This document shows positions 34,600 to 35,400 of a stretch of 64,000 bases of DNA, one piece after another. Position 1 is the stretch's first letter. Each line of letters opens with the position of its first letter. Under the pieces are notes generated by a model. It searched no databases, had not been told where the DNA came from, and saw only the letters and a list, made by a program, of their open reading frames with translations. Source of the DNA: Chlorobiaceae bacterium (GTDB lineage Bacteria; Bacteroidota; Chlorobiia; Chlorobiales; Chlorobiaceae); NCBI GenBank assembly GCA_013334965.1, contig JAAXWO010000010.1:22522-86521 (forward strand), read 5' to 3'. A program made the translations under genes and the position numbers.

Positions 34600-35400
34600 C
34601 CAGCCGCCAAACGTCTGGTAGCATGCGGCGGCAGCCGCCACCCTGATTGGCGTTGCCGGTGCGCCCTGGCGCTGCTTTTGCATGCAAAGCGCAGCGAAGC
34701 GGAGCGTAAGCCGTGACAGGGCGTGCCGAAGCAATGGCAGCATGACTTACCCAGCCTGAGCAGGCGCGTCCTGCGCTTGCGATGGCGTGCGCTCCCCATC
34801 GAGCCCGGCAGGGCTCGGCATATTCAGCGCTGCGGCAACCCGGCCAGCGAGGGCGCGCCGGTTGCATGCAAGCGAAGCGAGCCGCAAGCGGCGTGACGGA
34901 GCTGGCCGTCCGCGGAGTGGAGGCGAGGGGGTGATGGCGGAGCGAAGCCGGAGCCTGCGCCCCCTGGCCGGGAACGCAGCGGGTCCCCCGAGCGAGCGAA
35001 GGCGCGGCTTTTGCATGCGAAAGCGAAGCGGCAGCGGCAAAAGGCGTGACTGAGCGAGTGAGGCAAGCGGAGCCGGGAGCAAGAGGCGCGCCCTGCATTT
35101 GGCGCGCTTGTTGCTCCCGAGCGGAGCGCGACGCTCTTCATGCCGGCGACAGCCGGCCATGACTTCCTGCAGCTGGGCCGCTATGCAGCTACTAGGGCGG
35201 TCGACGCGGTGCGTCCGCACGCGCGCGAAGCAGGGCGAGCGGGTGCGTCGCGTTGGCGCCCGCTGGCGGGATCCGTCCACCGGCTGCCCGAAGCCCGCCA
35301 CTACACGGCTACCGCAAGGCGATCGGTGCGCGAGGAAGCAAAGCGAGCGCAACGGAGCGGGCGGGGCGAGATGCTTCCGGGCGGATGGGAAAATTCGTAT
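34600..35400. other. GC-rich structured non-coding tract B
   Basis: 10 plus-strand GCGNAGC motifs in 34689-35231; shares motifs with tract A. Confidence 0.6.

Follow-up and report, generated by a model that had tools for sequence, protein, structure and literature searches.

A dif-like hairpin heading an array of conserved hairpins in a non-coding tract of Chlorobiaceae mobile elements

The 64,000-nucleotide stretch of contig JAAXWO010000010.1 analysed here (the window), from a green sulfur bacterium of the Chlorobiaceae, carries an integrated, phage-like and capsid-encoding element of 24.4 kb that spans positions 11157 to 35530. Tract B (34470-35385, plus strand), at the right end of this element, is an array of at least eight conserved hairpins that is 69% GC and free of credible open reading frames (ORFs), as judged from composition, from homology with a related element and from fold z-scores. 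There is very little doubt that Tract B is a conserved structured non-coding element. Its plus strand is under selection for intramolecular pairing, and the tract represents a GC-rich and triplicated version of a conserved unit that is found on mobile elements of the Chlorobiaceae. This unit begins with an 80-nt inverted repeat (34509-34588, plus strand) made of two inverted dif-like Xer sites. The tract was initially noticed for its many GCGNAGC motifs, but the unit as a whole matters more than the motif count itself.

Conservation and pairing of the unit

In the metagenome contigs L047 and L033, a tract homologous to Tract B shares 75% identity with it over 872 nt. In these contigs, the 3′ end of the portal gene (73% identical to that of the window) is followed after 0.6 kb by the homologous tract, and the restriction-modification (R-M) cassette that precedes Tract B in the window is absent. 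The initial annotation had seen no credible ORF in the tract. This view is upheld, as ten ORFs taken from Tract B and from the related Tract A of the same element (see below) gave no Pfam match, and the indels that separate Tract B from the L047 homologue (12, 1, 1, 1, 2, 9, 1, 28, 1, 4, 1, 2 and 15 nt) are mostly not multiples of three. The large indels fall in hairpin loops. Tract B is thus preserved to the same degree as the portal gene, though not in the manner of a coding frame.

Three lines of evidence show that the plus strand is selected to pair, namely covariation, compensatory changes and the z-scores of folding. An RNAalifold consensus derived from a 17-sequence alignment of the family contains 41 pairs, with 93.1% of cells paired. 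Double-sided changes are observed at 16 of these pairs, as compared with 8.5±1.6 in column shuffles (0 of 500) and with 3-5 when the partners are slid by 1-3 columns. The mini-hairpin at the tip of the module covaries (outer pair GC:11, AU:5, GU:1; inner pair CG:15), as do the two pairs located under its GGA/GGA internal loop (AU:11/GC:4/GU:2 and CG:8/UA:8). Between Tract B and L047, 19 of the 231 predicted pairs show compensatory double changes, and these are spread over the whole tract. With RNA parameters, the plus strand folds at -484.7 kcal/mol (z -5.2) and the minus strand at -440 kcal/mol (z -2.2). Folding with DNA parameters, proposed at the outset as a check, gives a plus-strand z of -5.7.

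The 80-nt inverted repeat encloses two small hairpins (34530-34545 and 34546-34563), and its stem is extended by pairing of 34500-34508 with 34589-34595. Each arm reads TTGCATAA-N6-TTATGTAA(AGC), that is, a XerC arm, a 6-nt centre and a XerD arm. Site 1 (34509-34530, plus strand) is TTGCATAA-CCCCAA-TTATGTAA and site 2 (34567-34588, minus strand) is TTGCATAA-CCAAAA-TTATGTAC. The dif site of Chlorobi was described as TTGTTGTATAATATAAATTATGTAAAG(C/T) (Kono et al., 2011, supplement). All 11 positions of the XerD arm of site 1, TTATGTAAAGC, agree with it, and a single base separates the XerC arm from it in the core. Of the 26 genomes of the genus, 23 have TGTATAATATAAATTATGTAA, either in single copy or as two inverted copies close together; in the complete genomes its position is at 0.43-0.50 of the length. 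In the genome studied here it is found on contig C16, at the sign change of the GC skew, and in one genus-mate dif lies at most 4 bp from the position published for Chlorobaculum parvum. The host possesses XerD (372 bits, above cut-off) together with a second Xer-like (XerC-like) gene.

Across 17 family members the arms of the inverted repeat are invariant, which points to sequence-specific recognition. In the central region of the hairpin, positions 1, 2 and 6 are always paired and position 2 covaries (C-G, T-A, G-C), while 10 of the 11 distinct variants have a mismatch at positions 3-4, forming in silico a 2-nt bubble; the folded form would therefore be under selection. As far as sequence comparison can tell, the invariant arms and the covarying centre with its bubble thus argue for sequence-specific DNA recognition of the folded form. 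It is fairly probable that the 80-nt hairpin is a folded Xer substrate.

The chromosomal dif of the host is itself an inverted pair (C16:75209-75229, minus strand, and C16:75896-75916, plus strand), about 690 bp apart at the GC-skew switch. Inverted dif pairs separated by 0.5-1.5 kb are present in 7 of the 26 genomes of the genus (G024, G014, G022, G011, G008, G019 and the present one). Such a pair looks like a small dif-flanked module at the terminus.

Hairpin modules and the GCGNAGC motif

Downstream of the inverted repeat, Tract B carries three plus-strand copies of a hairpin module. Copy 1 (34643-34748) is a three-way junction with a GGCGC/GTGAC base, supported by covariation in the family and by a score of 83 bits with the covariance model (CM) R1. 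It holds the chained motifs GCGCAGCGAAGCGGAGC (34689, 34694, 34699), and its stem 34658-34727 shows six compensatory pairs with respect to L047. Copy 2 (34842-34907) was found by a pattern scan (GGCGCG..CGTGAC at 34852-34897), its CM score being weak (12 bits). Its loop contains GCGAAGC at 34872, where the pairing probability of the mini-hairpin is 0.8-0.97, and a 9-nt loop indel distinguishes it from L047, the stem being preserved. Copy 3 (34996-35067, hairpin at 35001-35050), which lies outside the training set of CM R1, scores 40.2 bits (E 2e-7); its loop has GCGAAGC at 35023 and differs from that of L047 by a 28-nt indel, with again a preserved stem. Because the base GGCGC(G)...(C)GTGAC includes one G.A and one G.T opposition, it forms on the plus strand only. 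The strict module hairpin has five plus-strand copies in Tracts A and B, as compared with about one per 70 kb elsewhere, and outside these tracts the CM has no match in the genome.

Modules of a second type, also on the plus strand, are found at 34789-34821 (CGCTCCCCAT followed by a 7-bp hairpin with a GGCA loop; three compensatory pairs with respect to L047) and at 35131-35163 (CGCTCTTCAT followed by the hairpin GCCGGC-GACA-GCCGGC, supported by the comparison with L047). A plus-strand 19-bp hairpin (repeat I3, 35074-35119) has five compensatory pairs in the same comparison. Several further stems are present in Tract B. Tracts A and B together contain six copies of the motif CGCTCYYCAT, all on the plus strand (19758, 19921, 19960, 20838, 34790 and 35132), which as a rule precede a 6-7-bp stem ending in a GNCA loop; 51 copies exist genome-wide. 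The association of this motif with a hairpin resembles boxA (CGCTCTT) followed by a boxB-like hairpin, and a boxA/nut reading was considered for CGCTCTTCAT and its hairpin; the assembly has no 16S gene. Other identities considered for the repeats were set aside. A CRISPR-like or tandem repeat was rejected because the stems differ among copies and covary, so that they are not fixed repeats. A hammerhead-like reading of CTGATAG..GAAA finds no support in Rfam. More generally, searching Rfam 15 at gathering and permissive thresholds gave no match in the window at or above gathering, the best sub-threshold one (E 0.11) being to an unrelated microRNA.

The ten plus-strand GCGNAGC motifs initially listed in 34689-35231 (34689, 34694, 34699, 34872, 34937, 34942, 35023, 35067, 35121 and 35225) are all present, and the minus strand has none across 34470-35385. 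The background of less than one per kb that had been assumed was too low, since the local expectation, in a region of 70.3% GC, is about 3.8 per kb; the genome-wide average is 0.326 per kb per strand. The enrichment nevertheless survives the comparison with shuffled sequence and with the host genome. In 2000 dinucleotide-preserving shuffles of 34689-35231, the plus-strand count averages 2.05 (sd 1.34, maximum 8) and none attains ten, corresponding to an excess of about 5-fold over local composition. Furthermore, this region has the highest density of the motif among all 543-nt windows of the 2.48-Mb genome. Six motifs, the next highest count, are reached in a 543-nt interval anchored at 19344, on the left edge of Tract A, and in an array on contig C14. 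The shorter motif CGNAG displays the same strand bias, with 19 plus-strand and 3 minus-strand copies in Tract B and 37 and 8 in Tract A. The L047 homologue contains 14 GCGNAGC on the plus strand and none on the minus strand (21 and 1 for CGNAG).

As DNA, the GCGNAGC mini-hairpin is characterised by a C-G closing pair, a sheared G.A pair and a one-base loop, with a very high Tm and resistance to nucleases. Five of the ten copies are located in the loops of the three hairpin modules, and the others belong to purine-rich GAGCGRAGCSG linkers. Most of the count is explained by the triplication of one module and by a purine-rich consensus. The proposal that the motifs form G-C[GNA]G-C mini-hairpins is retained in part: it is borne out by covariation at the module tip, but independent mini-hairpins at all ten motifs are not supported, and most motifs sit within larger modules or linkers.

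The array of contig C14 (C14:42350-42900, minus strand), unrelated to Tract B, is made of about seven tandem 77-nt repeats that resemble 3′ halves of tRNAs, with a T-arm GGTTCGAATCC and an acceptor end ...GCGGAGCCA. It has its six GCGNAGC in 543 nt and lies between two small ORFs, the N-terminus of one of them being, by eye, like that of a GIY-YIG nuclease.

The carrier element and the distribution of the unit

The ends of the element are fixed because two relatives hold empty sites. In the genus-mates G022 and G006, the position equivalent to 11167 of the window is joined to 35516 with an 11-nt overlap; the left flank, with a crtI-like gene, is contiguous with the right flank, with a sigma-factor gene, and homology breaks exactly at 11167 and 35516. 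The attR core, GATATATTTTTTATA (35516-35530), is a 15-bp direct repeat of the attL copy (11157-11171). Tract B had been said to lie next to attR; with attR now fixed by the empty sites, the distance is 131 nt. The tract is the final feature before attR, and its GC content of 69% compares with about 43% in its left neighbours. The element is inserted between the crtI-like and sigma-factor genes, dif being on another contig.

From left to right, the element encodes a tyrosine integrase with an arm-binding domain, ERF, a DnaQ-like exonuclease, Gp157, a terS-like helix-turn-helix protein and a weak DprA-like protein. These are followed by Tract A, SNase, scaffold and capsid, TerL and portal, and by a last block (30590-34400) consisting of an unknown gene, a C5 methyltransferase, an unknown 526-aa ORF and Vsr. 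This block is cargo, and the L047 element does without it: there, a 0.5-kb GC-rich piece stands instead between the portal gene and the dif-like hairpin. Among the genes of the 24.4-kb element, tail genes were not recognised. The largest ORF is the one of 526 aa, and the element has no giant virion RNA polymerase of the N4 type. A pdif-type module was rejected, as the R-M cassette is not bounded by a second dif-like site.

Repeats of TTTGTYCCG occur at 11307-11329, 35438-35457 and 35576-35585, in tandem beside the integrase gene and just within attR, and are probably arm-type integrase sites. The same tandem motif follows the tract in L047. The idea that L047 represents the circular (attP) form was dropped, since only a 22-nt TTTGTYCCG motif is common to L047 and the integrase-proximal end.

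Tract A (19626-21800, plus strand) is the second GC-rich, ORF-less tract of the element and is built of the same types of modules. Strict GGCG-stem-loop-stem-TGAC hairpins are located, on the plus strand, at 19809-19847, 20067-20104 and 20312-20349. A 55-nt direct repeat, 85% identical, is also observed (20367-20421 and 20670-20724). Pieces of Tract A are homologous to tracts flanking the dif-like hairpin in contigs L026, L029, L030, L035 and L037.

In relatives, the conserved unit comprises the dif-like hairpin and about 250-430 nt downstream, at lower GC content. Five of the 26 genomes of the genus have it, as do 6 GTDB contigs and 28 metagenome contigs. A CM built from the module alone, with the inverted repeat left out, matches 19 of 139 Chlorobia genomes, belonging to three genera of one family, with 1-3 copies each; in most of the matches inspected, the dif-like inverted repeat is present about 115-165 nt upstream of the module. 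The contexts are mobile DNA. The neighbours, on either side, are P4-like integrases, RadC/JAB genes, Mrr-type nucleases, KAP-type NTPases and other low-GC cargo. In L030, L037, L041 and L043 the unit lies between terS and the scaffold/capsid genes, which is the place of Tract A in the window, and parts of the tracts of these four contigs show homology to Tract A. In one complete genome of 2.76 Mb the unit stands alone between host genes. In at least eight loci, including L053, L027, L050, L030, L026 and L071, a RadC/JAB gene (recognised by eye from its motif) is located 0.4-2.5 kb from the unit, always on the opposite strand. Searches of phage and plasmid databases and a pattern scan of IMG/VR gave no match to the unit, which as a whole could not be matched to any described family.

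Nature of the active strand and comparison with known systems

In CTXφ, two inversely oriented dif-like sites pair within a single strand to form the Xer substrate attP(+) (PMC4246890). By analogy, it may tentatively be proposed that the present unit acts as folded plus-strand single-stranded DNA (ssDNA), combining a Xer hairpin similar to CTXφ attP(+) with hairpins similar to single-strand initiation (ssi) signals. As for the tract in its entirety, the view that it acts as ssDNA rather than RNA is held with a little less than even confidence, and ssDNA is placed, roughly, slightly ahead of RNA. Several features favour DNA. First, the hairpin mimics dif, for which an RNA would have no reason. 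Second, the types of loop caps match those of known DNA signals: C[GNA]G caps have been reported in RSF1010 ssiA and in N4 promoters (CCGAAGG/CCGGAGG, GCGAAGC), these loops have a low affinity for the single-stranded DNA-binding protein SSB, and they are far less stable when made of RNA (PMC13037366). In the unit, CCGAAGG/CCGGAGG caps are found within the inverted repeat and GCGAAGC/GCGGAGC caps in the modules. Third, the tetraloops are of the GNCA rather than of the GNRA type. Finally, a promoter scan found no conserved promoter upstream of the unit. Conservation starts about 35 nt before the hairpin, beyond which the flanks are unrelated and contain genes in both orientations, the upstream gene being often on the opposite strand. 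A sigma-70 promoter, or Frpo-like, reading of the hairpin was also rejected, as no promoter-like site was found.

In this framework, the plus strand would be exposed either as the displaced strand during rolling-circle replication of the excised element or at a replication fork. On the exposed strand, the dif-like arms would pair, so that host XerC/XerD would be presented with a duplex site whose centre is unpaired, like CTXφ attP(+). The mini-hairpin-capped stems would remain folded and exclude SSB, and they would mark priming or protect the strand, in the manner of RSF1010 ssiA or the G4 origin. All this may serve a replication-coupled Xer strand exchange or monomerisation, coupled to complementary-strand synthesis. 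A role in integration is not envisaged, because the element has its own integrase and its site is away from dif. Each of these steps is inferred, on a background of observed conservation, strand-specific pairing, identity with dif and mobile-element context. A more ambitious idea, rather unlikely at this point, is that of a new ssDNA module of Chlorobiaceae mobile elements, joining a folded Xer site to mini-hairpin-capped initiation or protection stems. In that case, the host XerCD and priming machineries would reach the element only while one strand is exposed, and folded-ssDNA Xer substrates would extend beyond the filamentous phages of vibrios to elements packaging double-stranded DNA (dsDNA). 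An obligatory ssDNA stage, for instance rolling-circle monomerisation or an ssDNA entry resembling that of gene transfer agents, would agree with the DprA-like, ERF and nuclease genes of the element.

Several observations weigh against the ssDNA proposal. The element has its own integrase and is not inserted at dif, so that integration of the CTX type is not at work here. Because it encodes TerL, portal, scaffold and capsid, the carrier packages dsDNA, and any ssDNA could exist solely during replication. All its structural genes are on the plus strand, co-oriented with Tract B, whose plus strand may simply be transcribed with them. Conserved G.U-type pairs (GU:13/AU:4, UG:13), which are more typical of RNA helices, are present, along with many one-sided GC-to-GU changes both within the family and with respect to L047. 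In genome G010 the unit ends at an intrinsic terminator. Lastly, only two of the ten GCGNAGC copies (34872 and 35225) are predicted as isolated mini-hairpins in ensemble folds of the whole tract; here, the nearest-neighbour energy model may underrate these loops, whose unusual stability is noted in a review (PMC13037366).

The main alternative is a structured non-coding RNA, which can be regarded as possible, if doubtful. The plus strand of the unit, or the modules past the dif-like hairpin, would be transcribed as a large RNA of the mobile element. Tract B would be its GC-rich form, in three copies. Such an RNA might, for example, expose GNA/GGA loops and thereby bind proteins as a scaffold or sponge; it might also serve as the leader of cargo genes located downstream, or be linked to a Xer site in the way of Rcd. 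Besides the strong covariation rich in G.U pairs, the one-sided GC-to-GU changes, the dsDNA packaging and the G010 terminator, the far greater stability of the plus strand with RNA parameters and the orientation of the unit agree with this idea, as does the presence, in several low-GC relatives, of cargo ORFs starting 400-550 nt downstream on the same strand. On the other side, the G010 terminator could serve an opposite-strand gene just downstream, Rfam contains no matching family, and no conserved promoter precedes the unit (in the window, the opposite-strand upstream gene is vsr). Hairpin arms matching dif DNA, mini-hairpins that lose much of their stability as RNA, and loops that are GNA triloops and GNCA tetraloops, not GNRA or UNCG, would also be unaccounted for. 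The original suggestion that this strand functions as structured ssDNA is supported in part, as regards a non-coding tract near attR with strand-specific, selected plus-strand pairing, ssDNA itself being only marginally preferred to RNA.

An origin as selfish or neutral hairpin repeats, either of the repetitive extragenic palindrome/bacterial interspersed mosaic element (REP/BIME) type or of the miniature inverted-repeat transposable element type, spread in non-coding mobile DNA, is unlikely. In that case the motif excess would reflect a repeat consensus. The modules are indeed repeated, and they have been shuffled among both tracts of the element and those of its relatives, and the solitary unit between host genes of the 2.76-Mb genome could be understood in this way. 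However, within the genome the copies are confined to Tracts A and B, Tract B is conserved like the portal gene and with compensatory changes, and the linkage to the dif-like hairpin is kept across three genera. Even less likely is a dsDNA region bound by proteins, corresponding to cer/psi-like Xer accessory sequences or to arm-type integrase sites by attP. Tract B does adjoin a Xer-like core close to attR, with TTTGTYCCG repeats near the integrase gene and attR, but covariation, strand asymmetry and indels restricted to loops are unexpected for duplex sites, and the cores form an inverted pair with covarying mismatched centres. Finally, a coding or decayed coding sequence whose codon bias would make the motif is highly improbable: ORFs reaching 238 aa are found in several frames, which at about 70% GC is to be expected of all frames, and the Pfam searches and indel pattern argue against such a reading.

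To our knowledge, folded single-stranded recombination sites are known from few systems, namely integron attC, CTXφ attP(+) and the ends of IS200/IS605, and the natural roles of DNA mini-hairpins are still poorly documented. The unit would add a family of folded sites with clear comparative support, in a different phylum, borne by dsDNA-packaging elements that have their own integrases and physically coupled to mini-hairpin arrays. It offers substrates for the study of Xer exploitation outside Proteobacteria and of mini-hairpin function in vivo, and it may help to understand what leads some phage-like elements to devote 3 kb out of 24 kb to GC-rich DNA without ORFs. If the tract were to act as RNA instead, it would represent a new class of large structured RNAs of phage-like elements.

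Among known systems, REP/BIME sequences are dispersed in many copies over the chromosome; the module hairpins and CM matches occur only in Tracts A and B. The GOLLD and ROOL prophage RNAs are similarly long, highly structured, ORF-less regions of phage-like elements, but they differ from Tract B, which has no Rfam match and no tRNA neighbours, and which displays repeated modular hairpins and a dif-like head. With cer/psi (and the Rcd RNA of cer), the unit shares a Xer core on a mobile replicon and a conserved flank of a few hundred nt on one side. Its cores, in contrast, are an inverted pair, and its flank evolves by base-pair covariation and not as duplex sites.

The resemblance to integron attC sites concerns an imperfect hairpin with AAC/GTT outer boxes (GCATAAC and GTTATGC), an unpaired centre and a branched variable tip, adjoining a cargo cassette (the vsr R-M genes). 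In the present case, however, each box matches the attC RYYYAAC/GTTRRRY at only 6 of 7 positions, the host lacks an integron integrase, no array of cassettes is present, and the arms of the hairpin are those of dif. The integron integrase TIGR02249 exceeds its cut-off only in G010 (C52:14759-15700) and G017 (C215:17013-17954), and not in the genome studied here or in the unit-bearing G003, G011 and G012. An identity as attC sites, including clusters lacking an integron integrase (CALIN), was rejected for want of an integrase in the host and of an association across genomes.

Strand-specific C[GNA]G-capped stems (CCGAAGG, GCGAAGC, GCGGAGC) relate the unit to ssi signals, such as RSF1010 ssiA and the G4 complementary-strand origin, and to N4 promoters. 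These have one to three stems, whereas many are found here in 0.9-2.2 kb, with an activity that is only predicted and no cognate primase or virion RNA polymerase seen in the element. A further parallel is with CTXφ attP(+), a member of the integrative mobile elements exploiting Xer (IMEX) of Vibrio. In both cases, two inverted XerC/XerD sites lie tens of nt apart with arms copying the host dif, and intrastrand pairing, deduced in silico here, would rebuild one Xer site with an imperfect centre. The carriers are different, since the unit resides on an element of 24 kb that encodes a capsid and a tyrosine integrase of its own, is not inserted at dif and, judging from its genes, packages dsDNA, whereas CTXφ has an ssDNA genome stage. 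The sites themselves also differ: the spacer of 90 nt in CTXφ is replaced in the unit by one of 23-38 nt holding two small hairpins, and the folded site is then followed by the conserved array of hairpin modules.

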